Shown one piece after another: positions 25,317 to 59,369 of a stretch of DNA of 64,000 nt. The stretch is taken from assembly GCA_010093815.1 (NCBI GenBank), contig ML996570.1; one strand, written 5' to 3'. Every line of letters begins with the position of its first letter. Position 1 is the first letter of the stretch. The translations under genes and the position numbers were made by a program. Source of the stretch: Pseudovirgaria hyperparasitica. Lineage: Eukaryota. Under the pieces are notes generated by a model, which did not search any database, had not been told where the DNA came from, and worked only from the letters and a program-made list of their open reading frames with translations.

Positions 25317-25531
25317 TATTAAGGGTAGACTCTAGGTATACTTAACGCTAGCGTACTACGCCTACGCTACTACTCTCTCCTTACTTAATGGAGCTAAGTA
25401 AGCCCCTTTTTAATAGTATACTCCGTCCCTTATCTTAAGGAAGCTAAGTAGACTCTAGCTTCCTCTCTTATTAAACTTACTATATTCTATAAATACTCTT
25501 ACATCTATATATATATTATATTCCTATAATA
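25317..25531 (+). repeat. 5' LTR of element A
   Basis: Colinear with 61044-61258; TA...TA ends (RIP of TG...CA). Confidence 0.93.
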
Positions 25532-27957
25532 TTAAGTTCGATTCTATTTTACTCTCTAAGTACTTTACTATAGACTTCGGAGATAATACGTAGAGTAATA
25601 CTAGGGGCGAGCTAGGCTAAGACCTAGATCTAAATATAGGGTTATAAAGCGCTAAAGAGGCGATCTTTAATCTACTATAACGCTAGTAAGCCCTTAAATA
25701 AGAGATTCTTACTATAAGAAACTAAGCCTTCTAGAATTAATCGAGCCCCGCTATAAATAAACTACTAAAGTCTCTACTTAAAAAGATAACCTTAATCCCG
25801 TAAACTAACTAGAAACTATTAGGACCTAGGGACTAGAAACCGCCCTTCTAGGACGGTAAAGTAGCTACCTTCCGAGACTATCTATTATAGTTATATAGCT
25901 TCTATAAGGTATGATCCGCGCTTAAGCTAAAGCTATCCCTAGATTACTATTAGAATACTATCTATAATACTCTACTAGTGTAAGAATAGGGTTATTAGAT
26001 AGTAGTATAGTTAGATAGAATAATAGGGTATATTCTATTATAGAACGAATTACTACCGAACCCTTTCGGTAGGAATCCGAGAGTATATATATAAAGGGAC
26101 GCCGATCTATCTAGTACGTAACTATTTACCGCCCTTTATATTACCTCCTAACCCTATTAGCTAAGGTATATATAGGTTAGATCCTACCTAAGGCTAAGTC
26201 CTAATAATTATCCCTTCCCTCTAGGAAGCTACCCTTAGCGACCTAGATTATTATCTATCTCTATATCTCTATTCTAAGTCTCGTAAGACCTTAGTTATTC
26301 TCTACGCTTCGTCTTAGATATTTACTAATATTTACTAATCTAAGATTTATATAAGCGTTTTTCTAATAAACTAGATTTTATCTATTCTAACTTCTTATAT
26401 AGGTAAGATTATCTAATTAGGCCTAGCGTATCACGTAATATAATTAGGTAAGCCCGGGTACTACCTATATTAAAATCTTTTCTTAGAAATATTCCTTTCT
26501 TTAAAAAACTTCTTAACTCTTTATAGAGTTTTTTAGATTATTAGATATATTACCTAATCCTTATAGATATAGATTTATATAGATTTACTATAATTTAGTA
26601 CGATTTACGTAATTTACTAATTTTCGTATTATCCTTAGCTAGTAATAGTATAATTCGTAATAATCCGTATAAATCGGTAATAATTATAATATGGTTTTCT
26701 AAAATCTTAATACTCTAAAGTAATTAGTACGGAAATAGGCGCCTTTAAATAATCTCTATCTTATATACGTTACCGATATATCGAAAGCTATTAATCTACC
26801 CTAACCTAGGCCGGGCTCTAATAATCTAGCTATATATTATTATAGTTATCGCTTTCCGTCGTATATTACTTACGGTAGTACTAAATCTATAATATATAGT
26901 ACTTATATAACTAAGAAGCGTTATTACTTATAGGTATTTAAGTAAGTTTAAAGAACTTTACGTAGGTTTACTTATATTAGTATAGATTACTACTAGGCCT
27001 CTAGTAACCCCTACTAATAAGGAGCGTAGTACTACTAATTATAACGCCTTAGAGAAGGCTTTCTACGAGCTATATATCTAAGGTAAGGGTTACGTCTAGA
27101 AGTACGATTCTAATAAGATCCGTAAGGATTTATCGGAATCTACTATAGCTATTATTACCGCGATTACTAGGTATTATTATTTTTCTTAAATCGTTATAGA
27201 TTCTTACTAATATATATTAATCTCTATAATTATAAGGATTATAGACGTAGGATAGTAGTCTAATAGGTTATAGGAGGATTCGGGAATATATTTAAAAGGG
27301 TAGTCTACTCTTCTAACGAGGTTGATTTCTAAAGAGTAGGAATTAAGTATATGCGGCCTACTTATATAGTAGTCTCGCTTATTCTAGCTAGCTTAACCTA
27401 GGTCCACCTATCACGGACCGTACTAGACTATAGTAGTCTAGTTAAGTCTATCCTAGTATTAGCCCTAATAATATTCTTCTTCTTCTTATGCTTCGCCCTA
27501 AAGTACTTAGCTATATATAAATCCGTAATTCTATAAGCGTTATATTTATACGCGTATCTAATTAAATCTATATAACGTTATCGATAGTCTTTATATTAGT
27601 AAACTTAAGCTCTAGTTTACTTTTATTTATACACGCACTTATCCCTTACTTTATAGCTACTACCTTAGAGGTAGCTCCGCGGGTTATATAACCGCTATAT
27701 TAACTAAGCTTATATTTAGTTCTCTTATTCTAAATTTTCTTCTCTAGTATATCTACCTTACTCTTAAGGTAAGTTATTAATTTATATACTATCTCCTTTA
27801 GTTTAAATCCGTTCGGGTCTAGAGTAGTCCATTTTTATTAGAGCTAGTTCTATATAATCTATTCGCGTTATTATGGTTACTAATTTAGCTTCTTTAATTA
27901 CCTTTAAGACTAAATAAGTATTCTACTCTTAGATCTCTAGCTAACGTATATATATAG

Positions 27958-29262
27958 ATATCTAATACTAGTTCTATTTCTAAGCCTACCTCCTCCTCTC
28001 GCAAGACTCACTCTAAAGAAATTATCTCTACCCCGGCTATACTAGCTAAAAAATCTACTTATCGTAGTAGTATAAAGGCGCGCTCTAAGTTAGAGAAGAA
28101 GATAGCTAAGGCTACTACTACTATTACTACTAATATAGCCACTAGTCACTCTAATCTAGGTAATTCTAGTACTAGTATTGCGGAAGAGGTGGCTATAAAG
28201 CCTACCTACACCTACTCGCGCCGTCTATCTACTCTACCTCCTTTAGAGGATAAAGAAGATCTCGTCGTAGACGATAATCGAGAGTTTACGCCTTCGCCGC
28301 CTCGCTCTAAATACTATTTCTCTTTTCGGTCTAATATAGACTAACTTAGTTACTCTAGATCCTTTTAGAACCTTAATATTTACTCTAAACCTAGCCCTAG
28401 TAATAATAAGGCCTAGGTCGCCGAAGATACTAAACGTAGTCGCGGTTTACGCTATAGGAAAATAGCGAACTACGGTTTAATATACTTTAAGTATATTAAG
28501 GCTTACGCCACCGGCTCTAAATATCTCTTCCGCTCTAACTCTAGTATTAGCTACTACTCTACTAACTACGATAGGCCTATATATCTAATCTTTAAGCTCC
28601 CTACCCGCTACCGCCGCTATACTATCCTTAGTAAAGTTTATCTTTAGATAAGTCTATTAGGCTATTTTAGTCTAGGGTAATCTAAAGTCGTCTATACTAA
28701 TACATTTTTAGGTTTCTATTTATATATAAGATATATATAACGATCTTCGCGTCCGTGAGACTCTCGGTAGTTCTAGTAGTTATCTAGCTTCTATACGTAG
28801 GGAGTTTAGGGAGCGCTATAAGCTCTTCCTAGAGGTTATTAAAGTATAAGTTTAGAAACCGTTAATTATTATTAACCTTAGCTTATAATTTTTAGTCGCC
28901 GCGAGATTCCTAGCGCTTAGGCTATCTATTCTAGGGAGTTGGTTTTAGCTACTAAGGCCGTAGAAGAGATTCGTACTATTCCTTCCCACCCGCCTTATAC
29001 TACTAACGGGTCTCATAAGAGATCTACTAGTTCTCCTTCTAAGTTACCTTATAAGAGGGTATATATTCTATTCTAGATTATTCTAGACCGCGTTAGCTAA
29101 CTTTAGGTCTAGTCGCTCCGCTCTAGCGCTTAGTTATTATCTTACTAGGCTCTAACTAAGCGCGTAGTTACTCTAGAGGATAAGGTCTCTAACCTCTGTC
29201 GCTCTATTACTTAGTTAGTTCATTCGCTATACTCTAAGAGTAATAATAAGATAGAGGAGTAG
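27958..29262 (+). pseudogene. Antisense spliced accessory gene of C (~380 aa; Ser/Thr/Lys-rich N-terminus, Zn-cluster-like motif, coiled coil)
   Basis: Exons 27958-28647, 28712-28845, 28896-29058 and 29107-29262 total 1143 nt in frame. Branch-site/AG signals present. Donors of introns 1 and 2 read ATAAGT; the intron-1 donor is intact GTAAGT in the D homologue. Confidence 0.75.
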
Positions 29263-29799
29263 CTCTATGGCTCTATTTACTAGGGTTTCTATATAGTGTA
29301 TGTTGGCTCTATCTACCTAGTTTCTATCCGTTTTAGTCCTTTTTAGACCGTTTAGATACCTATCTACTAGTTTTCTAGTAATTTAATTCTTAACTTAATA
29401 ATATTATATACGTTCTTATTTATTCTATAACTATTAAATTTTAGATTCTAATTTCCTTTAAGTTACTTAAGTATAGGTATTATATATAAATTAGTTTATC
29501 TCTCTAAATTATATTAGAGTACCTAAACTAGTGGCCTAGTAGTTATCGGTTTAGATACTCTAACCTTTTATATTATATATCACGAGTTTAATTCCGTAGT
29601 AGAGTACCTTTTTAGTTTCTTAGTCCTATATTCTTCTCGTGTATAATAGTCTATATTAGTCTATTCTAGACTTCTCTATATTATTCTATTATAATATATC
29701 GCGTTGCGTGCCTATACCGGTTATTTATATTTTCTTCGCGTTTAGTAACCGTATATCGCTTGAATTATAGGGCTGCCTTATAGAGTTTTCCTAGTATAC

Positions 29800-32700
29800 G
29801 TTTAGGATTCGTGATTTAATACTTCGTTCTCTATGGTATCCTTCTTCTTTCTACGACGGCCCTAACGGCGCTAGGTTTATAGTAGTAACGTGTTATCCTA
29901 TAACCTCTATTTATATATAGCTATCGCGGTACTTAAGATATATACTATAGGTTCCTAGGTATCCTTATCCTTAGTATAGTTCTTCTAATAGATTTAATAC
30001 TTTTGGATACTATTCTCGTTAAGCCTATGTTTAATAATATAGTCTACTTCGTATACGTCTAGTCTATCTTAGGGTATAATAGAGTATAATTACACGTTCG
30101 TACGTTTATATACGTTAGATCGAAACCTTTTAAGTAATAAGACGTGGAATACGTTATGGACTTTTATATCGTTTCCTAGGTTAAGCTTATAGACTCTTAT
30201 ACCGATATAACGTTTAATTCGGAAGGGACTAGCTATTTTATAATCGAGCTTTTTATTTACTTATAATGTTCGTATATTATAGATATTAAGGAGGACTTTA
30301 TCTCCCTCCTCGTATACTTAATCTTTAACTAATCTATTATAGTACTTTATATATAACTTATTCGCTTACTAGATTATTACGTGATAGTTACGTACGGTTT
30401 TAAAGATTTTAATCGCTAGTTCCTACGCGTAGACGTTAACATCTATTATTTAGTCGAACTAGACCGTGTAAGGTTCGAAACCTATCCTTAGACTACGTTC
30501 TAGGTTCGTCTAGAAGGGCGTAACACCTATTATACTATAACGACTATTATTATACGCGAATTCTACTATACTTAGTAGAGAGGCCTAGTCGTCTTATTCG
30601 AAATTATAGAATGTATAAAGGTAGGCCTCGAGCGTTTGGTTCTATCGCTCTATCTAACCATCTATTTATAGATGGAATACTATTAACATGTTTCTATTTA
30701 TACCAGCCATTTCATAGAATAACGTCTAGAATTTAGACGTGAATATACTCCCTCGGTCCGTAACAATCCTTTTTAGTATACCATGGACCTTAATAATCTT
30801 ATTCTAGAATACTTATACTAGTTCTTTTAATATAATCATCTTCTACATAGGGACATACCTAGATATCTTTATAAGTCTATCCACGATAATAAGAATTAAA
30901 TTATAACTTATTCTAAGTATCTCGCTTAGAGGTAAGTTAACTATAAAATCTATAGTAATATCTTTCTATATAAAGAGGGGGACTAGTAGAGGCTATAAGT
31001 TCCTATATAGCTTATACCTAGGTACCTTTATTCTTTAATAAATCGGATAAGTAGCTATCTATTCTTTAATATACTTAGATATATCTTCCTAAAAATAGTA
31101 CTAACGAATCGAGCTTAGGGTGCGTATATACCCGAAATGTCCTACTAGGTTAGCGTTATAGTATCGGCTAACTATAGTAAATCGTGCGTTACCTATTGGT
31201 ATATAGTACTTTCTATTATAGTAGAGTAAGCCGTCTATAAAGGTCTACTTATAGTCTACTTCGGTCCGTAATAACCTATCTTACTATATTTTACGTAACT
31301 TTAAAACTATTAGGTCTGTCTTTTATAGATCCACGATTAACTAGGCGAGGTCTACTTAATATATACGCTAGGTACCATCGCCCTCCCTAATAGCGCTAAT
31401 AAATGGCTCGCTAGGGACTTCGGTACCGTGTCTTTAGTTACCGGCTTCGGTCTTATAAATTTAATTACCGGTATTAGCGTTAGTATCTCGCTAATTATTG
31501 AATAACTTATTATCTAACCTCGTCCTTAAGAGTTAGGCCTATAGCTACTCTAGGACTCTATAGCTACTATAACTCTAGGCGCCTTCTTTATAGTTAGGTC
31601 TTCTTAATATTCTATTAGCTAGGTTTATACTTCTAGATTAATAGTAGATTATAAAGTAGAAATTTATAAGCTACTTAGCCTATTAAACCTATCGATGATT
31701 TAAAACTATCATGCTTATAAACCCCTTTAAGTTATAGTAATTAGTTAGTAACTTAACGTTATACATAGTACCTTTAAGATAATATCGCCACTACTTAAAC
31801 GACTCTACTATTACTAGTAGCTCTTAGTTATAAATAGTATATCTAGTCTCGACGTCGGCTATCTTACGCGAGAAGAACGTAACTAGATACTATTAGACCT
31901 TTTTAGACTCTATTAGTCTAGGCTAGGAGAGTATATCTAAGATTATAAATTCTAATATATTAGTTTTAACGTGAATAGGTTTAGTTAGGTTAAAGTGCAC
32001 TAGTAATAGGGCGGTTATAAATGCTTCTTTAATCTTCTTAAAGGATGTTCTTTCGACCTTAGTTAATTTAATAGGTTATAATTTAATATTATACTATTTC
32101 TATCTACCACGGACCGTAATAGACGAGTCGGTAGTAGTAGTATACGTATTAAGTGGTGCGGCTAAACGGAAGAAGTGTTTAATAAATTTTCGGTAGTAGT
32201 TAGTAAAGCTAATAAAGACACGTATATGTTAAATAGATTTTAGTTTAGGCTAGTCTATAATAGTAGTAACTCTATCTCTCTCTATAGTTATACCTTAATT
32301 AGTAATAACGAAGCTAAGAAAGTTAATATAGTCCTAATGGAACTCGTATTTAGATAGCTTAATATATAGCTTATACTTTTCTAGCCTATCTAGGACTATA
32401 CGTACGTGCTAGATATACTCCTCCTCGTTATCTAAGAAGATAAGGATATTATCTAGGTACATAATATATATTATATCGAGTAGGCCTACTAGCGCGTTAT
32501 TAATATATGCTTAGAAGGTACCTAGCGCGTTAGTTAGTCTAAAAGGGACTATAGTATACTTAAAGTATCTATAACGGGTTCTAAAAGCCGTTTTCCATTC
32601 ATCGCCTTCCTTAATACGAAGGCGATAGTAGATGTTACGTAGATTAAGCTTAGTAAAGATCTTTACGCGTCCTAGTCTATTAATAGACTTAGAGATAAGA

Positions 32701-34960
32701 GGTAGTAGGTAACGATTCTTTTATATAATATTATTTAGGCTACGGTAGTCGATATATAGACGGAGGCTCCTATTCTTCTTCTTTATAAAGAGGATTAGAG
32801 CTCCGGCTAGAGATATACTAGGCCTAATCTATTCTTGCGTAAGGTTCTTTTCGATATATTCTTAAAGGGCTTATAACTTAGGTTCTAAAAGAGAGTAGAT
32901 AGGTCTATATAGAGGTTACTAGCTATCTTCGAGATTAATAGTAAGGTTAGTAGATTAGTATTAAGGTAGTTTAGAGGAATCGATCGCTAACGCGATATAT
33001 TAGTATATTTTATACTAATATAGTAGGTTTTCGTCCACTTTAATACTAAGCTCGCTATTTTACGTAAGTAAGAGTACGTAGATAGTAGAGATCGCCTTCT
33101 TATAATCTTTCTAGAATTATTTATCGTCGATAAGCTATACTAGTTCCTATTAAGGTAGGTTTATGCGCTAGCTAGCTATCTTCTTAAGGAAGTCTAGTTT
33201 TAGATTATATTTCTTAAGCTATAGTATACCTAGAATTATATCGAAGGGACTATCTACCACGATAAAGGTTAAGTAGTAGAGTTTCTATTTCCCTCCGCTA
33301 TCCTAGATGCTATATTTAATAGTATAGGTACCGTATGACTTAATAGGACCGTTAATACTATAGAACATAGTATCTATTAGAGCTTAGATATCGGCGTTAA
33401 GTTCTCGTGCTCGTTAGGTTAATATAACGTTAGTAGCCGACCTACTATTAAGTATTATAGTCTAATATTATCCACGAGGGACCTTAATAGATCTAGTCTA
33501 TAGTTCGATATACTATTTAGCGGATTACCCCTCTATTATAGTCGCGTCTATAAGTCGCGAGGGTTTCTTATAGACTATTAGTTTTTTATATTCTATGCTA
33601 GGTAGTTAGGCGCGATGTATTCTAGCTACTAGTACTTATAGTATATAACTAGTTAGTTAGTTATATTAGCACTCGGTAGCTTCCCTAAACGGTACTTAGG
33701 TACTATATAGTCTATTCTACTATAGGTATAGTAAGTAACTTTAGGTCGTTTATACAAGTCAGTCCTTATATCTTAATATATCAATTAGTAGAGAGATCCA
33801 CAATACAATCCGCGTGGTTTTAAATTTAAGGCGTGGTAGTAGCCTTATAACGTCCCGCGAGATCTATTACTAAATCGGTTTTAGTTAGACGATTTTACGT
33901 TAGATTAGATTATTAGAGATAGTTATATACTAGCGCGGCGTTAATTATTTATTATATACTAGTATCGCTCCGCGAGGTTTATAAGAGCTTAGAGGTCTAT
34001 AGGGATTATTATTATAAGGTTAAGACGGTCCTTTATATTTAGGGCGAGAGACCGTTTAAAGTCGTCGTACTATCAAATTATATAATCTTCTTTAGCTTCT
34101 CTCTAGAGGGGCCGAAGGTATTTAAGGAGTTATAACGGTAACTAATTATCTCGTTATCGAGTCTTAAAGATATGGCCCTAGACCTAGTCGCGTTATTTAG
34201 CCCTATCGCTAAAATATTAGAGAAGAAATTCGGTGAACGTGTCCTAGTTATAGGTATTCTTAGAATGTTTAATTCGGTATACTATCTAACGTTCTAAAGG
34301 CGTTAGGTTAAGGTAGTTCTAGGCGAATCTAATTTTATTACTATCGTTTATAAATAGATGGAAGAATCGGCTATATTAGTAAGCCTATACGTGGAAACTC
34401 TTTCTACTTTTACTATTAAAGTAAGATAGTTTCTTAGGTCGGGGTAATTAGGATAGTAGTAGACTAGGATAGATTATTTTAGTTAGTATAGGTCTATATA
34501 AATATAGATTAGTCGTTACTAGAACTAAAGCGCGTAATATAGCTTTAAGTCTCGTAGTACGTTCTCGAGCTTTATTAAGTTCGCGTAGTTATTACTTAAG
34601 TTAAATCTATTATTATCTCTCTTCGTGTAGTCTAGTATATACGTTATTATAAGGTGTGGTTAACGTTAGGCGATTCTAATAGATTAACTTATTAACGTTA
34701 ATAAGGTCTAGTCTTATATTAAGGTTAGGTCTAGTATAGTTCGAACTAGACTAAGATAGAGTATAATAGACTCTATCCTTATATTCTATAATATCTTCTA
34801 TAGTTATACGGAATATCGTGCGAGTTATTAGTACGATAGCCTATAAGATATAGTTATTAGTAGGGGTAGTTATAGGTAGACTATTCTTCTCGTTTAGGTT
34901 AGGAGAAGGTCTACTATAAGAGGCGGTACCACGAGTGTTATAACGAGTAGTTAGAGCTAT
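29800..34960 (-). pseudogene. gag-pol of element C (gag CCHC knuckle, protease, RT, RNase H, integrase, chromodomain), RIP-disrupted
   Basis: Minus-strand [27 protein letters not shown] (~32575-32660) and YLDNILIF (~32440-32460); colinear with the pol of D. Ends approximate. Confidence 0.9.
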
Positions 34961-35890
34961 TTCTATAAACTACCGTCGTGCTATATAAAGAGGAATTAAA
35001 ATATAAGGATTATAGACGTAGAATAGTAGTCTAATAGGTTATAGGAGGATTCGGGAATATATTTAAAAGGGTAGTCTACTCTCCTAATAAGATTAATTCC
35101 TAAAGAGTAGGAATTAAGTGTATACGGCCTACTTATATAGTAGTCTCGCTTATTCTAGCTAGCTTAACCTAGGTCCACCTGTCACGGACCGTACTAGACC
35201 ATAGTAGTCTAGTTAAGTCTATCCTAGTATTAGCCCTAATAATAATAGTGCTAAAATCTCTACTACTTCGGACTTCTTTCTATATACTAGCGATATTAAA
35301 ATTCCTAGAAAAGGTTCTAGTAAAAAGGCTAAGGTTCCTTCCTTACGCGTGCTAAAGAGCTATAAATTTAGAGAAGATAGCTCTAATCTAGAAGTTTCTA
35401 TACTAAAGGTATATAGTTCTATACCGATCGTTAAATCTTTTTACTAATTTATATAATTCTTAGCGTGCCCGCGCCGGTCCGTCTCTCTCTATTCTAGGTT
35501 CTACTACTCTATAGGTTTCTATAGAGGAGTTTATAGCTATAAGGCGCGCTATATAGAATTTATAGCGTCGGAACGAAAGGCTAGAGACTTATATTATAAA
35601 GCTCTATACTATACTAAATAAGAACTAGCAAAAGGAATTAGATGTAACTATCGCGGTAATTAGTACTTCTACTCCTACTCCGACTTAATTAGTTTAGATC
35701 TATACTAATTAGTACTAATATATCTCTTTTATCTAGTATTTTTAGTTTTTTAGTTTTAATTTTAAAGTAATCTTACTTCTTCTAGATAGATTAGTACGAG
35801 TTTATAAAGATCTATATAGATCTTTATATTTTCTTTTAGCTTTCTTAATTTTATCTTTCTTTAATAATAACTTCTTTAATCTCTTTAGTA

Positions 35891-35931
35891 ATCTATACCG
35901 ATCTATACCGATCTATACCAATCGGCACCGA
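35891..35931 (+). repeat. 10-bp tandem repeat ATCTATACCG x ~4 in the 3' region of B
   Basis: Directly visible; lies between the pol end and the stop of the antisense gene. Confidence 0.75.
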
Positions 35932-36059
35932 TTTTCGATATCTATTTCTCTCGGTAAATTATTTTTCTAAGTCTCTTTTTTAGTTAAATTTTTTAAAGTT
36001 CTAAGTTTAAACTTTCTAAGGAAGTTCCTTAATTCCTTAGAATATTTTAAAAATCTATG

Positions 36060-41100: not shown

Positions 41101-41704
41101 AACCTTCTCGGTTCTAGTTAGACTATCTTAACTATAGTACTATATAGGGAGTAATTCGAATATAAGAATAGGGTTATTAGATAGTAGTATAGTTAGATAG
41201 AATAATAGGGTGTATTCTATTATAGAATGAATTACTACCGAACCCTTTCGGTAGAAATCTAAGAGTATATATATAAAGGGACGCCGATCTATCTAGTACA
41301 TAACTATTTACCGCCCTTCACGTTACCTCCTAACTCTATTAGCTAAGATACGTATAGATTGGGTCCTATCTAAGGCTAAGTCCTAACAACTAGCGCGTAA
41401 GAGAAACTAAATATAATACTTCTAGAAAAGAGGAGACTCTATAAAAGGTAAGGACCCTAAAGCCTTCTTTATATAACTCGAGTATATATTTATAGATAGT
41501 AATAAGAAGGCTAAGGCCTTAGAAAAGCTTTCGTTACTTAAATATATAAATAGCTAACCTTAGTATAAATACTAACTTAAATTTAATAGGCTTCTACTAA
41601 GTACCGGTAGAGATAACTAGAAAGATAGCGTAAAAATTAGCTATCTCTAAAATACCTTCTTAAACCCCGCTTATATATATATAGCCTCTATACTAAGGAT
41701 TATA

Positions 41705-44700
41705 TAGATTTAAAAAAACTTCTTACACCCTAACGGACCAAACTAGTCAATTCGGGGTAAAACAGCGATTTATATATATCAAACGATAGAGCACACCGAG
41801 TATAACAACCTCCGACATACGTATATACGTGTAGCGTATAATACGCGACGATACCGACGTGTAGAGACACTATATATATACGCTCGAAGACTCTTCGATA
41901 ATATGAGCATAGACTATATCTAATAAACGCCGACACGCCGACCCCCTTTTATTAGTTAAGGGCTACCCTTAACTAATAATTATAGCGGCCTTAGGTACCG
42001 ACGTACCTCGGCTTCCACCGGGTATACCCCTAATACTAGTACGGTAGAAACGGCTATATAGCGGCATATCCTAGGATAATTAAACCCCCGTCTAATTAAC
42101 GACGAATAACTAAGGGCGTATAACGCTATAGATAATAGAGACGGAGGGGACCCCGCCCGGGGAGACCCTCCCGGATAAGATTAACTACTAGGTAGCACGT
42201 GTAGAGGGGGAAGTCGAGAAGGGAGAAACGGCCCTCCTTAGTATTTTCCGGAACCTTATCTAGAATATTAGAGAGCTTACCGTAGGAGTAAAATAGGCGC
42301 CGGAACTAGACCCGGAATCTAGACTAGATCGCATAGAGGCCAGCCTATAGAGGATCTAGGAGGGCCTTACCTAGGGAAAACACCCTAGCACGTGGGTATA
42401 GGTCGCCGCACCTATAAGCGGAATAGCCATGTTAGCTAAAATACTAAGGGTACCTATAGACGGGGCATGTAGTATATAAGTCGCTATCTAGGATAAAGAA
42501 GTACTTATATAAGTCTAGTAAGCGTCCCTAAAGGATATTATAAATAAGATTAATAAATAGAAAGGGATATGGTTAAATGTAGTGGCCGCTAAACTCACTC
42601 TAGGAGGTATAGTACTAACTACTACCACTAACACGGCCTAGTAGACCATCTTACGCGACCCGAACGTAATTAACGACATCTTCCCTAGCGCGTCCGTCCA
42701 CGTAACCACGTACCCGATATAGATATATACCGTCCCCGTCCGAGGACACGTTATTAGAGAAGACGATATCGAGCGAATAGAGCGATCTAATAAACCGAAG
42801 TACCCTAGGATTAAGATCGCGAAGGCGTAGTAGAAGAACGTCTAAGGGATCAAGATAAAATTAAAAAAGTACTCTACTATAATAGTAGAGCTTAGGGACC
42901 CCGCTCTCGCCTATAGAATAATATAGGAGGGCTTCCTAGCTGAAGGAGAGCTACTTACGGCGGAACTATGGGATAGGGCATGGGTAATAACGCAATGCTT
43001 TAACTATTAAGGATATGGGTATACTAGGTAGAGGTGCTCTTAGAAGACCGCCTGTGGGTGGTATAAATAGGGCTATAATACTAAGGAATACCCTTATAAG
43101 ACGTAGAGCGATGAGACGCGAGATAGGGACACCGCTAAGTACTCTAACTATAACGGGAAATACCTATCCTAGTCGGTAACGTGCACGAAACGTAAGTAGG
43201 TCGTAGAATATATTAACGCGATAAAGATAAGAGGAGCGAGGTAGATATACTAAGCTATAAGGCCCTTGCTGCCCTCGCCGCTATCCCTAACTTTACTTAT
43301 AAATCTAGTAACTACCCCCCGAAGGGGAGAGGATAACGCGTAATAGTATACTATATAGAGAAAGATAGGCCGACCCCGGGGTATACTTAAAGCCGCTACC
43401 GCGTGAGGATAATCACGCCTTAGCGCTACTAATATATAGACTCGAACTTTCCCTAGCACCTAATAAGGGTATAAGATATACTTATTATTATATAGGCGAA
43501 CGTATAACATAAACAAGAAAACTAAGCGACGCTCCTAGAAGAGACAGGAGCCGTAATAATAGCTATCTAGGAACTATATAAATACTACTAAACTAATAAG
43601 CCAATAACACACCTAGGATACTATACTATCCACCCTATAGGCCCGGATAGAAGAGTCATGTTTTATATATATAAGTTGATCCCGCTCTTAGAATAGTCTT
43701 ATACTAAATATAATAACCTCTAGATAACACTATATCTCTAGATAAGTATAGGGCCTCTCTATATCTATAATATCTATAATTAATAGCGATCGCTTACGCT
43801 AGACGATATACTCGAGGGCACCACGACGCCGGGATAATACATCCTCCTAGGCGACTTTAATCTCTACTATAGGTAGTAGGGAGGCCTAGCCGTCGCGAGA
43901 GAAGAACTTAGAGTAAGGGAACTATATACACGGTGCTACGACTTCCTATACCTCCTTATATCTATAGGGTAGATTACCTAGAGGAAATATAAATAGGACG
44001 AGAACGGGTCTACGCTCGACCTTACCCTCGCCACCGAGCATATTAGCCATAGAGTATAGTACTACCGCCCGAGCCGGATATAGACGGACTCCGACCACGA
44101 ATGTATGGAAACCGTAATAGACGTCTCCACTCTTAACAAATAACGTAGAAAATAGCTATAGAAGGATACTAATTAGGATAAATACCTAGAGGACCTAGAA
44201 TCGGTAATTCTAGACCCCTCTATAGTCGACGTATCTAACGGCCTAGCCATAGATAAGGCCGTGTAAGTCCTCCTTTAAGTATACTAAGCCATAAGAGATA
44301 AACACGTGCTATACCGAACGTATAGACCCCTAGAAGCGAGGGGTATACCTTAAATATAAGAGTATAGAAGAGACGCCCGTAGACTATATATATATGTATA
44401 CTATATCCGGATAACTAAGGCGTGGGAAGAGTAGAAGGAAGTAGTACGATATCGTGATAGGGCCCTCCGTAATAAACGATGAAAATAATAGTATATAATT
44501 ACCAATAAATACACACGGTAAGCCGTAGGGCTATGGCGTATAGTAAAGTAGACTAAGGGTATAGACGCGCCGACGCCGCCGCCACTAATACCTCCCCTAA
44601 TATACTAAGAGAGGGTTACTCTATAAGCCCGGAGAAGACGGAGATCTTATATAAAGTTATGTTTTCCCTCCCGGAGCTAGTAGACCTATTAGATATTAAT

Positions 44701-46990
44701 AATACTAAATATCTAGATATAATTAATATCCTCTAAGAGGTTACTACGGAGGATATACTTAACGCCGTTAAAGTACTCCCGAATGATAAGGTACCCGGAC
44801 TAGATAGAATACTAAATAGGTACCTTAAACGCACTATACTAGCTACCCTACCGCTTATTAGTTATATATTTTAAGCATGTATTAAGAACGGATACCACCC
44901 CTAAAGCTTTCGGGCCGTCTATACTATTATACTCCCGAAACTAGGGAAGAACCCTAGCTCCCTAAAAGGATAGAGGCTAATTGCCCTCCTCTTCTATCTT
45001 GGGAAGATACTAGAGGCTACGATCGCAAAGAAGATAAGCGCCGCAGTATAGAAATATAACCTTCTTCTAGTAAACTAGAAGGCGAAGGCTAGAAGCTCCC
45101 TAATTACCGCTATCTAATATATCCTTAAAGTCGTCTAGACCGTATGGAAGTAGGGACGTGTAGTAACGCTACTCTCCCTCGATATGGCCGGCGTATTTGA
45201 TAAAGTAAACCACACGAGACTTATCTATAACTTACGGAAGAGGCGTATACCCGCGTAGATTACGCGGTTTATATAGTTCTTCCTCGCCGAAAGAGTTACC
45301 TAGATATATATCCCCGGATATCGAAGTAAGTACGAGAAGACGGCTTACGGCATCCTATAAGGAAGTACTATCTCCCCGATTCTCTTCCTCTTCTTTACTA
45401 TAGACCTTCTCTAGGGAATATAATATATAGAGGTAGTAGGATACGTAGATAATATATACCTTCTAGCTATTAATAATAATACTAGCTAAATATATAGACG
45501 ACTCGAATAAGACCACGGGAGATGCGTCTAATAGGTAAAGCGCCACGGAGTAAAGTTCGCCCCTGAAAAGTACTAACTCATATACTTTATTAACTGCCGT
45601 GGGAAATAGGCTACTAGGGAAGGCGAGTGACGCCCTAGAATAGACGCCTTCGACGAACCGCCGATATAAAGTATACACGCACTTAGCGTTATGATTAATA
45701 ATAAGCTTAAATAGGGACCATAGGTAGCATACGCCGTTTCTAGGGCCCTCTAGGTAGAAGCCGCTATACGACGGATTATAGCCTCCATATAGAGAACCGC
45801 CCGGGATAAGGCACGCTAGCTATATATATCTATAGTACGACCCGCCTTTACGTATAGACACGAGTACTAGTATACGGCCCTTATATAGACTAGGCGAACG
45901 AAGCTTAAATCCATATAGAACCGTATACTCCGTCTTATATTAGGCGTATATAAAGCTACTAACACGGTGCTACTACGACGCGAGATAGACGTTATAAGTA
46001 TATATAACTTCTACTAGATATAGAGGGTGGTATACTTTACTAGATAATAAGCATAGGAACGTGTAGAAAATATAGAATATACCTTCGCCGCGCTACGCGC
46101 GCGGGTTAGCGTATACTACTAAGTACTCTTATATATAGGCCGGACTCGACTACGGTATAAGTGCCCGATAGAAATAGACTCGAACTAAGTGGTATAAGAG
46201 ATTAGGGATAACCTAGACGCCCTCCTAGACTAATAGAGCCTTCGAGAGCTTAGACGAAGTATATAGTTATAGATCTAAGATAAGTAGAAAGAGATACTCC
46301 GGGCCTAGTGGGCCTCCTAGTAGGATAGATACCTAGAGTGGATCCGAGGACCATAGAAGGAGCTGAGTAAATAGATATATAAAGGGCTTATAAAGGCCTA
46401 GGTATCTATACTCCTCTAAGCCTAAACGGGCGCTATAGAACTTCTATACTACCTCTATAAGAGAGGCGTCCCTAACGTGTCTCTATAGTATAAGGCGTGC
46501 GGCCGGAGAGGTATAATACGCCACTATCTTATAATATACCCTAATCTTTACACGTAAAGGTAGAAGCTTATCCACACGATAAGAACCTCCGATATCGTAT
46601 AATAGCTTAATAAGTACCCTAAGGAAGTCGCCCGGTGGATGATTATATACCTACTACTCCTCTAATTCTAGTAGACCCGGAAATATATATCGGAAGGAAC
46701 CCGGTATACATTAGAGGAAACCCGGCATATGCCGGAAGAACCCCTTAACTAATAACCTCCGCACCTATACGTGCTGCCTAAGGGTAAAATAACGGTAATA
46801 TAGGCTATAGGCTAATAGGTGTACCCTATGGCTATATACTTAAGAAGAAATAAAGGTTTAACGAGATGTAATTATTAATATAAGGAAGTTTTCCCCTCTT
46901 AGGTTTCTTCTTATATAGTAGCTTAGACTAGAGGAGGCATAGGCCTATAGAGTACTACTCTACCTAGTTATACAATATTATTATTATTAT
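41705..46990 (+). mobile_element. Full-length non-LTR retrotransposon (Tad1-like LINE), RIP-inactivated, inserted in gag of A
   Basis: ORF1 zinc knuckles (QCFNY*GYGY...C; CGWY...). ORF2 APE motifs IAI*EL, ILLGDFNL, STLDLTLAT, DSDH. RT motifs KVPGLD, *RLIALL..LGKILE, LSLDMAGVFDKVNH, GIL*GSTISPILF, GYVDN. (ATT)n tail. 16-bp TSD TATACTAAGGATTATA (41689-41704 / 46991-47006). Confidence 0.93.
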
Positions 46991-48172
46991 TATACTAAGG
47001 ATTATAGACTACTATAGCTTCGCGGAAGAGGTCGAGAGAATTATAATAAACTTAGAAGATACTAAGTAGTTTAAGGTAGCTAATAAGAAGTAGAAAAAGA
47101 ATATAGTTACTATAATAAAAAGCACGGTAGCTATAAGGTTATATAAGTATTATACTATAGCTAAAAAGAATAAGAATAGAGATACTATTATAGGCCCCGT
47201 ATATATAAGCGGAGACTAGAAGAAAGGATTTAGATTCCGCCGTAAGACGGAGGAGATACTAAAGGTAAAGTAGATTAACTAAGTAGAAAGGAATAGACGC
47301 TAGAAAGAAGGACTCTACTTCCGTTATAGGGTATCGGGATACTAGATTAAAGGCTACCCGTATACTAATCCCTCCTTAACCTCTAAAAGAATTATAAAGA
47401 TTAATTAAGTTAAAATTATATCTCTATTAGAGATTAAAGATAATCTTATAGATTCTAGTAATAAGTACTTAGGAAATATATAACTTTCTCTTAAAGTTAA
47501 GAGTAGAGAGTAGAGAACGTACTAGTAGATAGATAGGCCGAGTTCTAAAGTATAATAGATAGAAACCTTATATATACGGATATAGTTCTCTAAAAAGCTA
47601 TTAGGACTTTTACGCTTATTAACGAAGGCTACTAGTACTACGCTATAATTTAAGAAGACCTAATAGAAGGTCTAGAACTCCCCTATATAAATTATAGAAA
47701 ATATATAATTAAGGGAGTAACGGACACTATAAACGACTCCGAAATTCGTAGAGTCGTCGCGTTTCGTATAGAGATAGATAATTATAGATAAGATATCTAC
47801 GCTTATATAGTACCTAACTTAGCCTTCCCGCTTATTCTTAGAAATCCTTAGAAAGTATATAATAAGGTATAGACCGCGCCTAATAAGCGATAGTGTTAGG
47901 ACGGGAACTATAATAGACCTATATAGACCATTCTAATCCATGCAGCCACGTAGTGGCTAGAGCTAGGTTAAGTCAGCTAAGTTAAGCGAGGTTACTATAT
48001 AAGTAGACCGCATAAACCGATTTCTACTCGTTAGGAGTTAACCTCGTATAAGAGTAAGATTACTCTATAAATACATTTCTATATCTCTCTATAAACTATT
48101 AGACTACTATCCTACGTCTTCACTCTTTATATTTTAACTCCTCTCTATATAGCACGACGGTAGCTTATAGAG

Positions 48173-51100
48173 ATAGCTCCTACTACGCGCTATAATACCC
48201 GTGGTACTACCTTACACGAGAGACTCTCTCTAAATCTAAACGAAGAGAATAGTCTCCCTACGACCACCTCCACCGATAAGTATACTCTATAGACTATTAT
48301 ACTAATAACTAGTATAGTATTCTATATAACCGTGGAAGATTACCTAGATAATAAGGAAGGAGTCTATTATACTCCATCGCGGTCTAGTTTATACTATACT
48401 AGACCCATTCTTACTATAAGACCAGACCCTATTAACGTTAATAAATTAATTCGTTAGAACCGACTAATATTAACCACGCCTTACGACGACGTATATACCA
48501 AGCTATACATAGAGAGGTAGCGTTAGACTTAGCTTAAGTAGTAACTTTGCGAACTCGACGAAGCGTAAGAACGAACCGCTAGACTCGAAGCCGTACTACG
48601 CGCTTTAGTACTAGTAGTAACTAACCTATACTAATATAGACTAACTTAAGCCGAAATAGTCTAACTAAGTCTATTACTATCCCAGTTGCCTCGGCCTAAG
48701 AAACCACCTTACTTTAATAGTAAAACCAGGAGGAGCTTTTATAAATAGGCTTACTAGTATAGCCGATTCTTCCATCTATTCACGAACGATAGTAATAAGA
48801 TTAGATTCGTATAGAACTACCTAGACCTAACGCCATCTAAACGTTAGATAGTATATCGAATTAAATACCCTAAGGATGTGTATAACTAGGACACGTTTAC
48901 TAAATTCCTTCTTTAATACTTCGGCAATAGAGCTAAGTAACGCGAATAGGCTTAGAGCCATATCTTTAAGACTTAATAGTAAGAGAGATAATCCCCGTTA
49001 TAACTTCTCGAATACCTCTAACCTCTTTAGAGAGAAGCTAAGGAAGATCGTATAGTTTAATAATGTGACGACTTTAAAAGGTCTCTTAACCCGAGCGTAA
49101 AGGAACGCATTAACCTTATAACGTCTATCCCTACCGACCTTTAGGTACTCGCGAATCTTATAGAACGACATTAGCGTATAATAAATAACTAATATCGTAT
49201 AGGCGTATAACTATCCCTATTAATCTAATCTAATACGAAATCGTCTAAAGAGGACCGGTTTAGTAATAGATCGCGCGGAACACCTCGTAGACGCTACTAC
49301 TCTACGAACTCGAGAAGACGAGGCCCGTACCACGGATCTTTCTACTAGTCGATATATTAAGACGTGAGAAACGACTCGTATAAACGACCTAAAGTTACCT
49401 ACTATACCTATGGTAGAATAGGCTATATAGTACCCGAGTGCCGCTTAGGGAAACCACCGAATACTAATATAGATACTAAGTTAGTTATATACTATAAGTG
49501 CTAGTAGCTAGAATATATCGCGCCTAACTACCCGGTATATAATATAAAAAACTAACTATCTATAAGGAACCCTCGTAACTCGTAGATATAACTAAAATAG
49601 AGGGATAACTAGCCAACTAGTATATCGAACTATAGGCTAGGCCTATCGAGATCCCTCGTAGATAATATTAGACTATAATACTCGATAGCGGTTTAGCTAC
49701 TAACGTTATATCGACTTAACGAGTACGAGAACTTAACGTCGATATTTAAGTACTAATAGGTACTATCTTCTATAGTATCGATGGTCCTATTAAATCGTAG
49801 AGTATCTATACTATTAAATACGGTATCTAGGACAGCGGGGGGAAGTGGAAACCCTACTACTTAACCTTTATCGTGGTAGATAGTCCCTTTAATATGATCC
49901 TCGGTATACTATAGCTTAAAAAATATAACCCGAAACTAGACTTTATCTAGAAAACAGCTGGCTGGCGTATATACCTACTATAATGGAATCTAGTATAGCT
50001 AGTTAACGACGAATAATTCTAGAAGGACTACGAAAAGGTAATCTCCGCTATCTACGTCCTCTTACTTACTTAAAATAGAGAGCTTAGTATTAAAGTGGAC
50101 GAAAACCTACTATATTAGTATAAAATATACTAATATATCGCGTTAGTAATCGACTCGTCCGAATTACCTTAATACCAATCTACTAACCTTACTATTAACC
50201 TCGAAGACGGTTAATAACCCCTACACGGACCTATCTACCCTCTATTAGAACCCGAGCTATAGGTCCTCCGAGAATATATCGAAAAGAACCTTATATAAGG
50301 ATAGATTAGGCCTAGTATATCCCTAGCCGGAGCTCTAATCCTCTTTATAAAGAAGAAGGATAGGAGTCTCTATCTATGTATCGACTACCGTAGCCTAAAT
50401 AATATTACGCGAAAGAATCGTTATCTACTACCTCTTATCTCCGAGTCTATTAATAGACTAGAGCGCGTAAAGATCTTTACTAAGCTCGATCTATACGACG
50501 TCTACTACCGCCTATATATTAAGAAGGGCGATAAGTAGAAAACGGCGTTTAGAACCCGTTATAGATACTTCGAGTATATAGTAGTCCCTTTTAGACTAAC
50601 TAACGCGCTAGGAACCTTCTAAGCGTATATTAATAACGCGCTAGTAGGCCTACTCGACATAACGTGCATTATATACCTCGATAACATCCTTATCTTCTCT
50701 AATAATAAAGAAGAATACATCTAGTACGTACACGTAGTTCTAGATAGGCTAGAAAAACATAAGCTATATATTAAGCTATCTAAATGCGAGTTCCACTAGG
50801 ACCACGTTAACTTCCTTAGCTTCGTTATTACTAATTAAGGTATAACCATAGAAAGGGATAGAGTTACTACTATCGTGGACTAGCCTAAACTAAAATCGGT
50901 TTAAGATATACGTGTCTTTATTAGATTCGCTAATTACTACCGAAAATTTATTAAGTATTTCTCCTAGCTAGTAGCACCGCTTAACGCGCGTACTACTACT
51001 ATAGATTCGTCTATTACGGTCCGCGGTGGATAGAAATAGTATAATATTAAATCGTAGTCTATAGAATTATTAGAAGGCGAAAGGGCCTCCTTTAAGAAAA

Positions 51101-53320
51101 TCAAAGAGGCATTTATAACTACCCTATTACTAGTGCACTTTAACCTAACTAAACCTATCCGCGTTAAAACTAACGCGTTAGGATTTATAATCTTAGGTAT
51201 TCTCTTCTAGCCTAGACCAACTAAGTCTAAAAAGGTCTAATAGTATCTAGTTGCGTTCTTCTTACGTAAAATGGTCGATGTTAAGACTAGATATACTATC
51301 TATAACTAAGAGCTACTAGTAATAGTAGAGTCATTTAAATAGTAGCGATATTATCTTAAAGGTGCCATGTATAACATCGAGTTACTAACTAATTACTATA
51401 ACTTAAAGGGGTTTATAAGTACGACGGTTTTAAACCGTTAATAGATCTAATAGGCTAAGTAGCTTACGAACTTTCACTTTATAATCTACTATCGACCTAG
51501 AAGTATAAACCTAGCTAATAGAATATTAAGAAGACCTAACTATAAAGAAGGCGCCTAGGATTATAGTAGCCATAGGGTTCTAGAGTAGCTATAGGCCTAA
51601 CTCTTAAGGACGAGGTTAGATTTTAAGTTATTAGGTAATTAGCGAGATACTAACGTTAATACTAGTAATCGAATCTCTAAGACCGAAGCCGGTAACTAAA
51701 GACGCGGTACTAAAGTCCCTAGTAGGCCGTTTATTAGCGCTGTCGGGAAGGGCGATAATACCCGGTATAAATATCTAATTAACCTCGCCTAGTTAATCGT
51801 GGATCTATAGAAGATAGACCTAATAGTTTTAAAGTTACATAAAATATAGTAAGATAGGTTATTACGGACTAAAGTAGACTATAAGTAGACCTTCGTGGAC
51901 GGCTTACTTTACTATAATAGAAAGTACTATATACCGACGGGTAACGCGCGATTTAATATAGTTAGCCGATACTATAACGCTAACCTAGTAGGACACTTTA
52001 GGTATGTACGTACCCTAAGCTTAATTCGTTAGTACTATTTTTAGAAAGATATACCTAAGTACATCAAAGAATAGATAGCTACTTATCCGATTTATTAAAG
52101 AACGAAGGCCCCTAGGCATAAGCCATATAGGAATTTATAGCCTCTTTTAGCCCCCCTCTTTATATAGGAAGATGTTACTATAGACTTTATAGTTAACTTA
52201 CCTCTAAGCGAGATACTTAGAATAAGTTATAATTCTATTCTTATTATCGTGGATAGACTTATAAAGATATCTAGGTATATCCTAGTATAGAAGATGATTA
52301 TATCTAAAGAACTAGCGTAGGTGTTCTAGAACGAGATTATTAAGGTCTATAGTATACTAAAAAGGATCGTTATAGACCGAGGAAGTACCTTCACGTCTAA
52401 ATTCTAGACGTTATTCTATGAAATAGTAAGTATAAATAGAAATATATCTATAGCATTTTATCCTTAGACGGATAGCTAGACAGAGCGATAGAACTAGACG
52501 CTTAAGGCCTACCTACGCGTATTCTATAATTTCGAGTAGAATAACTAGGCCTCCCTACTAAGTATAGTAGAGTTCATATATAATAATAGTCGTTATAGTA
52601 TAATAGGTATTATACCTTTCTAGACGAACCTCGGACGTAGTCTAAGGATAGGTTTTAAGTCTTAGACGGTCTAATTTAATCGAATAATAGACGTGAACGT
52701 CCACGGTTAGGAATTAGCGATTAAAATCTTCGAAACCGTACGTAACTATCGCGCTATAATCTAATAAGTAAACGACTTGTATACGAAGTACTATAATAGG
52801 TTAGCTAAGGATTAGACGTATAAGGAGGGCGATAAGGTCCTTCTTAATATCCGTAATATATGAATATCGCGAGTAAATAAGAAGCTTAATTATAAAATGG
52901 CTAGTTCCTTCTAAATCAAACGTTATATCGGTATAAGAGTCTACGAGCTCGACTTAGGAAGCGATATAAGAATCTATAATATATTCTACGTCTTACTACT
53001 CGAAAGATTTCGACCTAACGTATATGGCCGCATGAACGTATAGTTATACTCTATTATACCCTAAGATAGACTAGACGTATTCGAAGTAGACTATATTATC
53101 GAATATAGAATTAATAAAGATAGTATTTAGAAATATAGAATCTATTAGAAGGACTATACTAAGGACGAGGACACCTAGGAACTAGTAGTATATATCTTAA
53201 GTTCTATAATAGCTGCGTATAAGCAAAAGATATAGAATAGCGTATTATTAATATAAGTATAGCGACGTCGCGGTCGTCGTAAAAAGAAGAAGGATACCGT
53301 AGAGAACGAAGTGCTAAACT
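48173..53320 (+). pseudogene. gag-pol of element D, RIP-disrupted
   Basis: Gag knuckle ~49490-49530; protease ILDSG (49680); [15 protein letters not shown] and IYLDNILIFS (~50670); RNase H TNALGF and *ELLVIV; integrase FYP*TDS*TER; chromodomain FEVDYIIEYR...*KDYTKDEDT*EL (~53080-53190). Ends approximate. Confidence 0.92.
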
Positions 53321-53704
53321 AGGAAATCTAGACGCGCACTAGGAAAACTCTATATAGTAGCCCTATAATTTAAGCGTTGCACGGTTACCAGACGCGAAGA
53401 AAGCGTAAATAACCATTTTAGAAACGCGACGCGACACACTATAATAGAATAACATAGAAGAGTCTAGAATAGACTAACATGGACCATTACACACGAGAAA
53501 AACATAGGACCAAGAACCTAAAAAAAGGAAAATTAGAATGTAGAAACCGATAGTTATAAGCTAAGCGAGCGCATATATAATATCGTTAAGTTAAGAATTA
53601 AATTACTAGAAACTAGCCGACGGGTATCTAAACGGTCTAAAAAGGACTAAAATGGATAAAAGCTAGGTAAATAGAGCCGGCGCGTACCACCTATAGTAGA
53701 TCTA

Positions 53705-53822
53705 GAATATATAGAGCCAGGCATAGAGCTAATATATAGAGCTAGGCACAGAGCCAACACATAGAGCTAGACCATAGAGCCAATATATAGAGCTAAACCT
53801 ATAGAGCTAGAACTATAGAGCT
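53705..53822 (+). repeat. ~13-bp degenerate tandem repeat (TAGAGCYAxxxxA) x ~9 in the 3' region of D
   Basis: Directly visible; the equivalent position in C (~29263-29320) has only ~3 degenerate units. Confidence 0.8.
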
Positions 53823-55132
53823 ACTCCTCCATCTTATTATCCGTTCTAACCTCTAGTATAGTTCTCTCTAACCGTACGACATAGCGGCGGAGGACGACGA
53901 CCTTAGCCTCTAGAGTAATAACCCGATCCGTTAGAGCCTAGAGGGAAGAGTCTTAAGCGCTAGAGCGTAGCGACTAGGTCTAAAGTTAGCTAATATAATC
54001 TAGAATAATCTAGAAGGGAATATATACCCTCTTACGAGGCGACTTAGAGGGAGAAATAATAGATCTCTTATAAGATCCGTTAGTAGCGTAAGACGGATAG
54101 GGGGGGATAGAGCGAATCCTCTCTACGGCCTCTATAGCTAGAATAGACTCCCTAGAATAGGTAGCCTAGGCGCTAGAGATCTTGCGGCGGCTAGAAAAAT
54201 TAATAGGTATTAAAAATAATTAACGTGCTTATAACTTATACTTTAATAACCTCTAGGAAGAGCTTATAGCGCTCCCTAAACTCCCTCTATATAGTAGATA
54301 GGCGGCTATAAGGACCCCCGAGGGTCTCATAGACGCGAAGGTTATTATATATATCTTATATACGCATAGGAATCTAAGAATATATTAGCGTGGACTACTT
54401 TAGATTATACTAGATTAAGATAGCCCATTAGACTTACCTATAGATAAGTCTTACTAGTCATGGTATAGCGGCGGTAGCGGGTAGATAGAGTAAAGATAGG
54501 GCGTATAGGCCCGTCGTGGTTAGTAGAGTAGTAGCTAATACTAGAGTTAGAGTGAAAGAGATATTTAGAGCCGGCCGCATGGCCCTTAATATACTCATAG
54601 TATATTAAACCGTAGTTCGCCGTTTTCCTATGGCGTAAACCGTAACTACGTTTAGTATCCTTAGTGACCTAGGCCTTATTATTAGTAGGCTAGGGTTTAG
54701 AGTAAATATTAAGGTCCTAAAAGAACCTAGAGTAACTAAATCGGTCTATATTAGACCGGAAGAAAGAGCGGCAAGGCGGCGGCGTGGGTAAGCGCGAGGG
54801 CTTGCGATTATTATCTATAACGAGATCTTCTTTATCCTCTAGAGAAGGTAGAGTAGACGGCGTACGCTTTAGAGCGAGAGGAGAACCTATAACTACTTTA
54901 TCTATAAGTTTAGTACTAGGATTACCTAGATTAGAGCGACTAGTAGCTACATTAGTAGTAGAGGCAGTGTAGTAGTAGCCCTAGCTACTCTCTTCTCCGA
55001 CTTAGAGCGCGCCTTCGTACTACTATAATAGGTAGACTTCTTAGCCGGCGTAGCCGGGGAGGAGGCGATACCTTTAGAGCGAGTCTTATGAGAGGAGGAG
55101 GTAGACTTAGAGATAGGACTAGTATTAGATAT
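53821..55132 (-). pseudogene. Antisense spliced accessory gene of D (orthologue of the C gene)
   Basis: Colinear with 27958-29262. Intron-1 donor GTAAGT intact at 54437. Last exon has the same length and frame (...ALTDRVITLEAKVVVLRRYVVRLERT...KMEE*). Confidence 0.75.
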
Positions 55133-55854
55133 CTATATATATACGTTAGCTAGAGATCTAAGAAAGGAATATTTATCTACCCTTAACGGCGATTAACGAA
55201 GCTAAATTAGTAACCGTAATAACGCGAATGGGTTATATAGGACCGGTTCTAACAAGAATGGACCACTATAGACCCTTCTAAACCTAAACTAGGGAAGATA
55301 GTATATGAATTAACGACTTACCTTAAGAGCGAGGTGGATATACTAGAGAATAAAATTAAAGGCAAGCGAAGCTAAATATATACTCGACTAAAGTAGTAAT
55401 TACGTATCCTAGGTAGTAGCCATAAAGTAAGGGATAAGCGCGTACATGAACTAGTAAAAGTAAACTAGAATCTCGAGTTCACCTATATTAAGGATAGTTA
55501 TAACGTTATAGGAACTTAGTTATAGATATATAGGTACACGATAGATTATAGAGACTTAGGATTATATATACTTAAGTACTTTAGGGCGAAGCATAAAAAG
55601 AAGAAGGATATTATTAGGACGGGAACTATAATAGATCTATATGGACTATTCTAATCCATGTAGCCACGTAGTGGCCAGAGCTGGGTTAAGTTAGCTAAGT
55701 TAAGCGAGGTTACTATATAAGTAGACCGCATAAACCGATTCCTACTCGTTAGGAGTCAACCTCGTATGAGAGTAAGATTACTCTATAAATACATTCCTAT
55801 GTCTCTCTATAAACTGTTAGACTACTATCCCACGTCTTTACTCTTTATAGATAG

Positions 55855-59237: not shown

Positions 59238-59369
59238 ACCTATAGAATACACGGATAAAGAAGAGGAAGACTATATAGTCTTAAGAGAGAATAGAAAAGA
59301 AATTCATTCTATAGAAAAAAAAAAAGAAAAAAAAGAGAGAGAACTAAACGCTAAAGGAAAAGGCCTAGA

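Follow-up and report, generated by a model that had tools for sequence, protein, structure and literature searches.

A 64,000-nucleotide stretch of contig ML996570.1 of Pseudovirgaria hyperparasitica (hereafter the window) contains three long terminal repeat (LTR) retrotransposons of the Ty3/Gypsy type, named B, C and D, in which, we consider it likely, a true accessory gene runs antisense to gag-pol. Placed in the spacer between pol and the polypurine tract (PPT) of two related chromovirus families, this gene would have three short spliceosomal introns and would have encoded a protein of about 380 residues, a probable dimeric regulator. All three copies in the window are dead, their Gln and Trp codons turned into stops and almost every Cys turned into Tyr by repeat-induced point mutation (RIP), and for that reason what is said below about function is inferred. 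A preliminary description of the window had proposed an element-borne antisense regulator gene encoding a small Gal4-like zinc-cluster protein. The formerly coding, intron-bearing antisense gene in two chromovirus families has stood up to analysis, and the zinc-cluster label has not.

The gene is best seen in element C, which extends from 27231 to 35244 with gag-pol on the minus strand. On the plus strand, and inside the element, the antisense gene occupies positions 27961-29262, between the PPT (27474-27487) and the chromodomain (~29927), its frame starting about 490 nt inside the LTR boundary. An antisense additional open reading frame (aORF) of a Ty3/Gypsy element lies at just this place, on the opposite strand and bounded by the pol stop and the PPT/3' LTR, and the LTRs, the PPT, the target duplication and the pol domains that define it were all mapped. 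Only 3 of the 228 codons of the plus-strand frame from 27961 to 28644 are stops; the other two frames have 13 and 42. The average for the surrounding AT-rich block is 0.097 stops per codon, and none of 2000 dinucleotide shuffles was as low as the 3 stops of this frame.

Each of the three frame shifts in C coincides with a short intron, and the same three introns restore the frame in D. In C, exon 1 (27961-28647, plus strand, 229 codons) starts with ATA, possibly a RIPed ATG, and is followed by intron 1 (28648-28711, 64 nt, phase 0), which has the donor ATAAGT (GTAAGT in D), a CTAAT branch site and a TTTTTAG acceptor. Exon 2 (28712-28845, 134 nt) is separated by intron 2 (28846-28895, 50 nt, phase 2), with the donor ATAAGT in both C and D, from exon 3 (28896-29058, 163 nt), which ends in ...PYKR. 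After intron 3 (29059-29106, 48 nt, phase 0; donor GTATAT, branch site GCTAAC, acceptor TTTAG), exon 4 with the stop codon (29107-29262) encodes the heptads of a predicted leucine zipper. The exons of D lie on the minus strand at 54438-55129 (exon 1, with a frame-shifting 5-nt indel relative to C near 54965-54969), 54240-54373 (exon 2), 54028-54190 (exon 3) and 53821-53979 (exon 4 with the stop codon, again with the predicted zipper). Branch sites in the introns of C and D are CTAAT or CTAAC, acceptors end in TAG and the phases run 0-2-0; the altered donors ATAAGT and GTATAT are what RIP makes of GTAAGT and GTATGT. The four-exon antisense frame originally described for C and D, with its intron phases 0-2-0, was borne out.

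Spliced together, the exons of C amount to 380 codons (1140 nt). Ten of 379 codons are internal stops, each TAA or TAG, and zero Gln, Trp or Met codons remain. This is the expectation if RIP made the stops from CAA, CAG and TGG. Stops are denser in C's own integrase, where 29 were counted in 439 codons. A comparison of C with D revealed 21, 19 and 35 transversions at codon positions 1, 2 and 3, respectively (380 sites each), and since RIP makes no transversions, the excess at third positions is a weak sign of past purifying selection.

The extent of RIP was determined from base composition and from the zinc motifs of known proteins. Positions 24-63 kb form an AT-rich block with a GC content of 0.29-0.43, as compared with about 0.50 for the adjoining ordinary genes of the window. 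In the elements, TpA/ApT was 1.6-1.8 and (CpA+TpG)/(ApC+GpT) was 0.12-0.22, while the genic part had 0.70 and 1.23 for the same indices. Of 21 Cys positions in the zinc motifs of integrase and gag of B, C and D, placed by eye on the consensus, 2 have kept Cys and 19 now read Tyr, which confirms the premise of the preliminary description that RIP has turned Cys into Tyr in these elements. The integrase zinc finger of each of the three elements has Tyr in place of both Cys; of the gag knuckle Cys, C retains 0 of 6, D 2 of 6 and B 0 of 3.

In order to place the gene among retrotransposon families, the three elements were delimited and compared. The 3' LTR of C (27228-27473, minus strand) pairs with 34999-35244 at 95% identity and adjoins the PPT, whose plus strand reads TTCTTCTTCTTCTT. 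A 5-bp duplication, ATAAT/ATAGT, flanks C, which means that C was inserted into another element, namely B. The latter extends from 25981 to 41392, interrupted by C, with pol on the minus strand at about 36.2-39.2 kb; its 3' LTR (545 nt, 25981-26525, minus strand) recurs in part at 41160-41392 and once more at 61562-62106, and is unrelated to the LTR of C and D, as had been stated. Element D (47889-55849), whose LTRs are 93% identical, belongs to C's family and is inverted relative to C, with 82% identity over 5.6 kb. The pol of C contains a Tf2-type SH3 domain (Pfam SH3_Tf2-1, E 2.3e-12), and directly after this integrase SH3, at the C terminus of pol (29927-30050, minus strand), a degraded chromodomain gave a Pfam Chromo match with E 0.019 and 15.3 bits, the cut-off being 25.1. 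A chromodomain-like stretch, RIP-degraded and recognised by eye, aligns across B, C and D. Over the 439 residues of integrase and chromodomain, identity is 38% between B and D and 77% between C and D. Judged by these sequence features, B, C and D are RIP-degraded chromoviruses of two families, each with a chromodomain-like end to its pol. The spacer between pol and the PPT, previously put at about 2 kb in all three elements, measures ~2.3 kb in C and D and ~1.6 kb in B.

The link between the two families rests on a shared motif at the end of exon 1. The DNA pattern for Y-x2-Y-x6-Y-L-stop followed by a splice donor matches the window only at 26895 (B), 28609 (C) and 54435 (D), where 0.02 matches are expected by chance, and none of 100 shuffles reached three. 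The motif reads Y-RR-Y-TILSKV-Y-L-stop in C and Y-ST-Y-ITKKRY-Y-L-stop, with GT next, in B, so that the claim of an intron 1 donor at the motif's end in all three elements holds. Its site is collinear, lying 1887 nt from a common pol landmark in B and 1927 nt from it in C. In B the motif closes the stop-free end of exon 1 (26805-26933, plus strand, 42 codons), and GT follows. An ungapped comparison of the last 44 codons of exon 1 gave 13/44 identities between B and D and 11/44 between B and C, and the aligned stretch includes a Tyr pair 28-29 residues ahead of the last Tyr. Thirteen identities were reached by 8 of 76,734 windows of the AT-rich block, a count that includes the B, C and D windows themselves.

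Further downstream, removal of C together with its target duplication restores an 85-codon stop-free plus-strand frame in B across the junction. Exon 3 of B is interrupted by the C insertion; its first part is at 27171-27230 and its second part, at 35250-35408, continues the same frame and ends in ...SILK before a GTATAT donor. Intron 3 of B is 55 nt long, with the GTATAT donor, a TACTAAT branch site and a TTAG acceptor, and is followed by a last exon of 54 codons (35464-35628 with the stop codon, plus strand) that begins RARAG... and contains heptads. B and C/D agree in strand, in location with respect to pol, in the motif, in the position of intron 1 and in a GTATAT donor of intron 3 after basic residues, and each has a last exon of 51-54 codons with a predicted zipper. 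On these likenesses we regard the gene of B as probably homologous with that of C and D. The gene is kept in C and D, which are of one family, and less completely in B, which represents a second. Of the architecture ascribed to B at the outset, the motif with its donor, intron 3 and the last exon stood; an open exon 1 further upstream and phase 2 for intron 2 could not be confirmed.

Three parts can be distinguished in the encoded protein. The N-terminal ~160 residues of the C product are rich in Ser, Thr and Lys. Residues 160-229 are rich in Tyr (13/70, vs 7/159 before), and 9 of these 13 Tyr are common to C and D. This module was quite possibly once rich in Cys and/or His; in these copies the three residues Tyr, Cys and His are indistinguishable. 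In the last exon, hydrophobic residues occupy the a/d positions of five heptads in 10/10 cases in D, 8/10 in C and 8/10 in B, and heptads as good arose in 0, 19 and 63 of 5000 shuffles for D, C and B, respectively. The last exon is a predicted leucine zipper or coiled coil in B, C and D, in agreement with the coiled coil of the preliminary description. For the last exon of D, Pfam returned nothing beyond sub-threshold coiled-coil matches (DUF7310, E 0.014; Lzipper-MIP1, E 0.042). A C-terminal leucine zipper implies a dimer.

We propose that the ~380-residue product would have begun with a stretch rich in Ser, Thr and Lys and ended in a leucine zipper, with a module at the close of exon 1 in which Cys and/or His were probably frequent and Tyr is now read. 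By analogy with other retroelement antisense genes, it would most likely have worked in the nucleus as a dimer that regulated the expression or life cycle of its own element. The introns of an antisense gene are not recognised in the genomic RNA of the element, and so they survive reverse transcription.

The identity of the module at the end of exon 1 bears directly on what kind of regulator this might have been. A Zn(II)2Cys6 cluster consists of six Cys with the spacing C-x2-C-x6-C-x5-12-C-x2-C-x6-8-C, and proteins of the Gal4 type carry it at the N terminus with a coil close behind. If Y-x2-Y-x6-Y were one RIPed half of such a cluster, the protein would be a Gal4-like DNA-binding regulator (PF00172), as the preliminary description held. 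The spacing of the motif does fit either half of the cluster and is common to B, C and D, the loop residues are basic (RR and K in C and D, KKR in B), RIP did turn Cys into Tyr in these elements, and a coiled coil lies downstream, as in Gal4. However, the other half is missing on both sides, so that only three candidate positions, all of them Tyr, fit the pattern. Downstream of the motif, both C and D have Leu at the place of Cys5, and two Tyr in exon 2 of C correspond to CGT or CGC codons of D, which makes them former Arg and not Cys; upstream, the nearest Tyr pair common to B, C and D is 17 residues off, where 5-12 are allowed. The domain order and spacing are also atypical, with the motif at residues 217-227 of ~380 and the zipper beginning ~120 residues later. 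Pfam yielded zero families at E <= 10 for exon 1 of C and D and for exon 2 of C, Zn_clus among them, which is a weak point since RIP-replaced Cys could hide a member of that family. A Gal4-like protein is very unlikely in our judgement, and we have kept the description 'dimeric, possibly metal-binding regulator' and dropped 'Gal4-like'.

Two other identities were considered and set aside. In bZIP proteins a basic region with an invariant Asn and Arg stands directly ahead of the heptad Leu repeat; here the stretch before the zipper is Ser/Gln-like, has Arg at the expected Asn (by eye) and gave no Pfam bZIP match. A CCHC knuckle (C-x2-C-x3-H-x5-C) could be drawn in C and D, and was dropped as its spacing is one off the retroviral form and it is absent from B.

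Several observations weigh against a true accessory gene in the two families. The frame of B upstream of 26805 is full of stops, the splice sites chosen for its intron 2 give phase 1 and not 2, and a tblastn search with the C and D peptides against B found nothing significant outside the 44-codon stretch (best collinear E 0.27). Both the motif pattern and the anchor for the comparison with B were chosen after the sequences had been seen, and the excess of third-position transversions between C and D is only small. A fourth Gypsy element in the window lacks the motif, and no antisense gene was recognised in the ~1.7-kb spacer after its pol. A word-indexed protein search with exon 1 of C returned 181 candidates, none at E <= 0.01, a profile of C and D exon 1 had 0 matches at E <= 0.001 among 1,835,955,588 proteins, and Pfam contained no homologue of the antisense gene for the exon queries of C and D, the last exon included. 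The blank homologue searches say little, because the Cys, Gln and Trp of the query have all been altered by RIP. The lack of significant similarity between B and C/D outside the 44 codons, the closed frame upstream in B and the absence of the motif from the fourth element would also fit a one-time capture of a host gene fragment by the C/D family, the likeness of B being a coincidence or a separate capture with no shared ancestral gene; passages of a review indicate that transduction-like capture explains some additional open reading frames (PMC11963269). Against such a history, B and C/D agree in strand, place, motif, intron 1 position, the GTATAT donor of intron 3 and a zipper exon of 51-54 codons, and exon 1 has no host-like homologue among 1.84 billion proteins. 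We consider it unlikely.

A further reading is that there was never a gene and that RIP composition, or the shadow of a sense-strand feature, gave rise to the frames. In its favour are the low complexity of RIPed DNA and the rather few stops (9/228) that the reverse-complement frame of C exon 1 has as well. It is nevertheless an exceedingly unlikely account, given that no composition-preserving shuffle out of 2000 reached 3 stops, that the stop density is below that of the element's own pol, that the frame changes coincide with canonical introns in two copies, and that heptad periodicity is found in three elements. A true antisense accessory gene with three introns, present in two related chromovirus families, is the reading that we prefer.

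The search for relatives was extended to metagenomes, where 80 loci with 23-37% identity in the integrase were collected. The antisense peptides had no match in these 80 loci (best E 0.79), and neither the Cys nor the Tyr version of the motif with its donor was present on their minus strands. The closest relatives checked, L006 and L012 (13161 nt; 35-37% integrase identity), are themselves strongly RIPed, with TpA/ApT of 1.7. In 47 metagenome loci pol is followed by at least 1.5 kb, and from the downstream minus strands of these loci 25 frames of at least 142 aa were chosen. Ten of these proved to be parts of other, inverted retroelements, one a Tc3-type transposase and one a host gene, and 13 had no match or a weak sub-threshold one. 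A six-Cys pattern in locus L009 was without Pfam support and was put down to chance, the DNA there being GC-rich. The ESM Atlas held no usable match to a stop-free 76-residue stretch, and none of the papers listed in a literature search combined Zn2Cys6 with retrotransposon terms.

The spacers and the neighbourhood of the elements show some further features. In D, a tandem array with a 25-nt unit repeated 3.6 times and sub-periods of 13-14 nt (53706-53795) follows right after the antisense stop codon (region 53706-53823), between the two convergent genes. C is without this array and has its own extra ~150 nt at 29460-29608. The fourth, more divergent Gypsy element occupies 55850-61040 on the plus strand, with reverse transcriptase at 56200-57444, an integrase of ~30% identity to that of D at 57916-58473, and a chromodomain-like end near 59.0-59.3 kb, recognised by eye. 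An element resembling a long interspersed nuclear element (LINE) lies at 41400-47001, with a plus-strand frame for a non-LTR reverse transcriptase; it is less RIPed (GC ~0.41) and interrupts the 5' LTR of B at 41392. A second, inverted LINE-like copy at 62099-64000 (91% identity over 1.9 kb) adjoins the other B-type LTR, the one at 61562-62106. A rearrangement or duplication is hinted at by the 89% likeness between the left flanks of the two LTRs of B type, 25317-25534 and 61044-61261.

RIP ends sharply near 24 kb, and the genic flank encodes ordinary host proteins at 10678-12498, 6598-7851, 20179-21273 and 22273-23940; its products are a U-box cyclophilin (Cyp8/PPIL2-like), an amino-acid permease, a tyrosyl-DNA phosphodiesterase and a RING-type membrane E3 ligase. 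The Cyp8-like protein is 65-68% identical to named proteins of Dothideomycetes (among them those of Coniosporium, Saccharata, Macrophomina and Phyllosticta), and its best unnamed match has 70% identity. From these identities the host is an ascomycete nearest the Dothideomycetes and no relative of Botrytis.

Antisense accessory genes of LTR retrotransposons are already known in Botrytis and in plants, and the present gene is a further case. Zhao et al. (2011, Virology 417:248) reportedly described brtn in Boty-like Gypsy elements. Passages in four papers present brtn as an additional antisense gene of the Boty-like Ty3/Gypsy elements of Botrytis cinerea and Sclerotinia (PMC8365987, PMC7264820, PMC4227169, PMC5987419), and passages citing the brtn work report a BRTN-like transcript in Monilinia. 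As far as those passages go, the likeness consists in a fungal chromodomain Gypsy element with an extra antisense gene between pol and the 3' LTR, found in more than one element family. The hosts differ, the present one being nearest the Dothideomycetes and those of brtn being helotialean, and our gene is likened to brtn by place and orientation, not by comparison with the BRTN sequence.

In plants, the Gypsy elements Grande, RIRE2 and Retand (TRP28 domain) have antisense open reading frames between pol and the 3' LTR, which passages of two papers (PMC7264820, PMC11963269) suspect of DNA binding and liken to retroviral HBZ. By these passages, the plant frames resemble the present gene in lying at the same place in the same orientation, in being conserved from copy to copy and in being suspected of a regulatory role in the nucleus or through DNA binding. 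Tandem repeats are likewise described for the Retand spacer, and the spacer of D has its 25-nt array of 3.6 units. Unlike the present elements, the named plant elements are mostly not chromoviruses, and the present gene has three introns and is without TRP28 or any other Pfam domain. HBZ of human T-cell leukaemia virus type 1 (HTLV-1) is a spliced minus-strand gene near the 3' LTR and encodes a protein with a C-terminal leucine zipper. Being antisense, spliced and predicted to end in a leucine zipper, the present gene finds in HBZ its best functional analogy. No sequence relation between the two was seen, a canonical bZIP basic region is absent ahead of the zipper, and the host and element class differ. 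HBZ is also mentioned alongside antisense open reading frames in a passage of PMC11963269.

On a wider view, an ascomycete chromovirus clade, perhaps including Boty with its brtn, might have received by descent a single antisense gene with introns, its product a leucine-zipper regulator that bound metal, formed dimers and controlled LTR transcription or silencing, a fungal counterpart of HBZ that would have arisen long before the retroviral one. This is a speculative extension, drawn by analogy, which we rate as unlikely. What the present case adds to the genes already known is its occurrence in chromoviruses of a fungus nearest the Dothideomycetes, in two families that are 38% identical in integrase, and its combination of introns with a predicted leucine zipper. 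Taken together, these points would suggest a dimeric nuclear regulator and not a structural protein.

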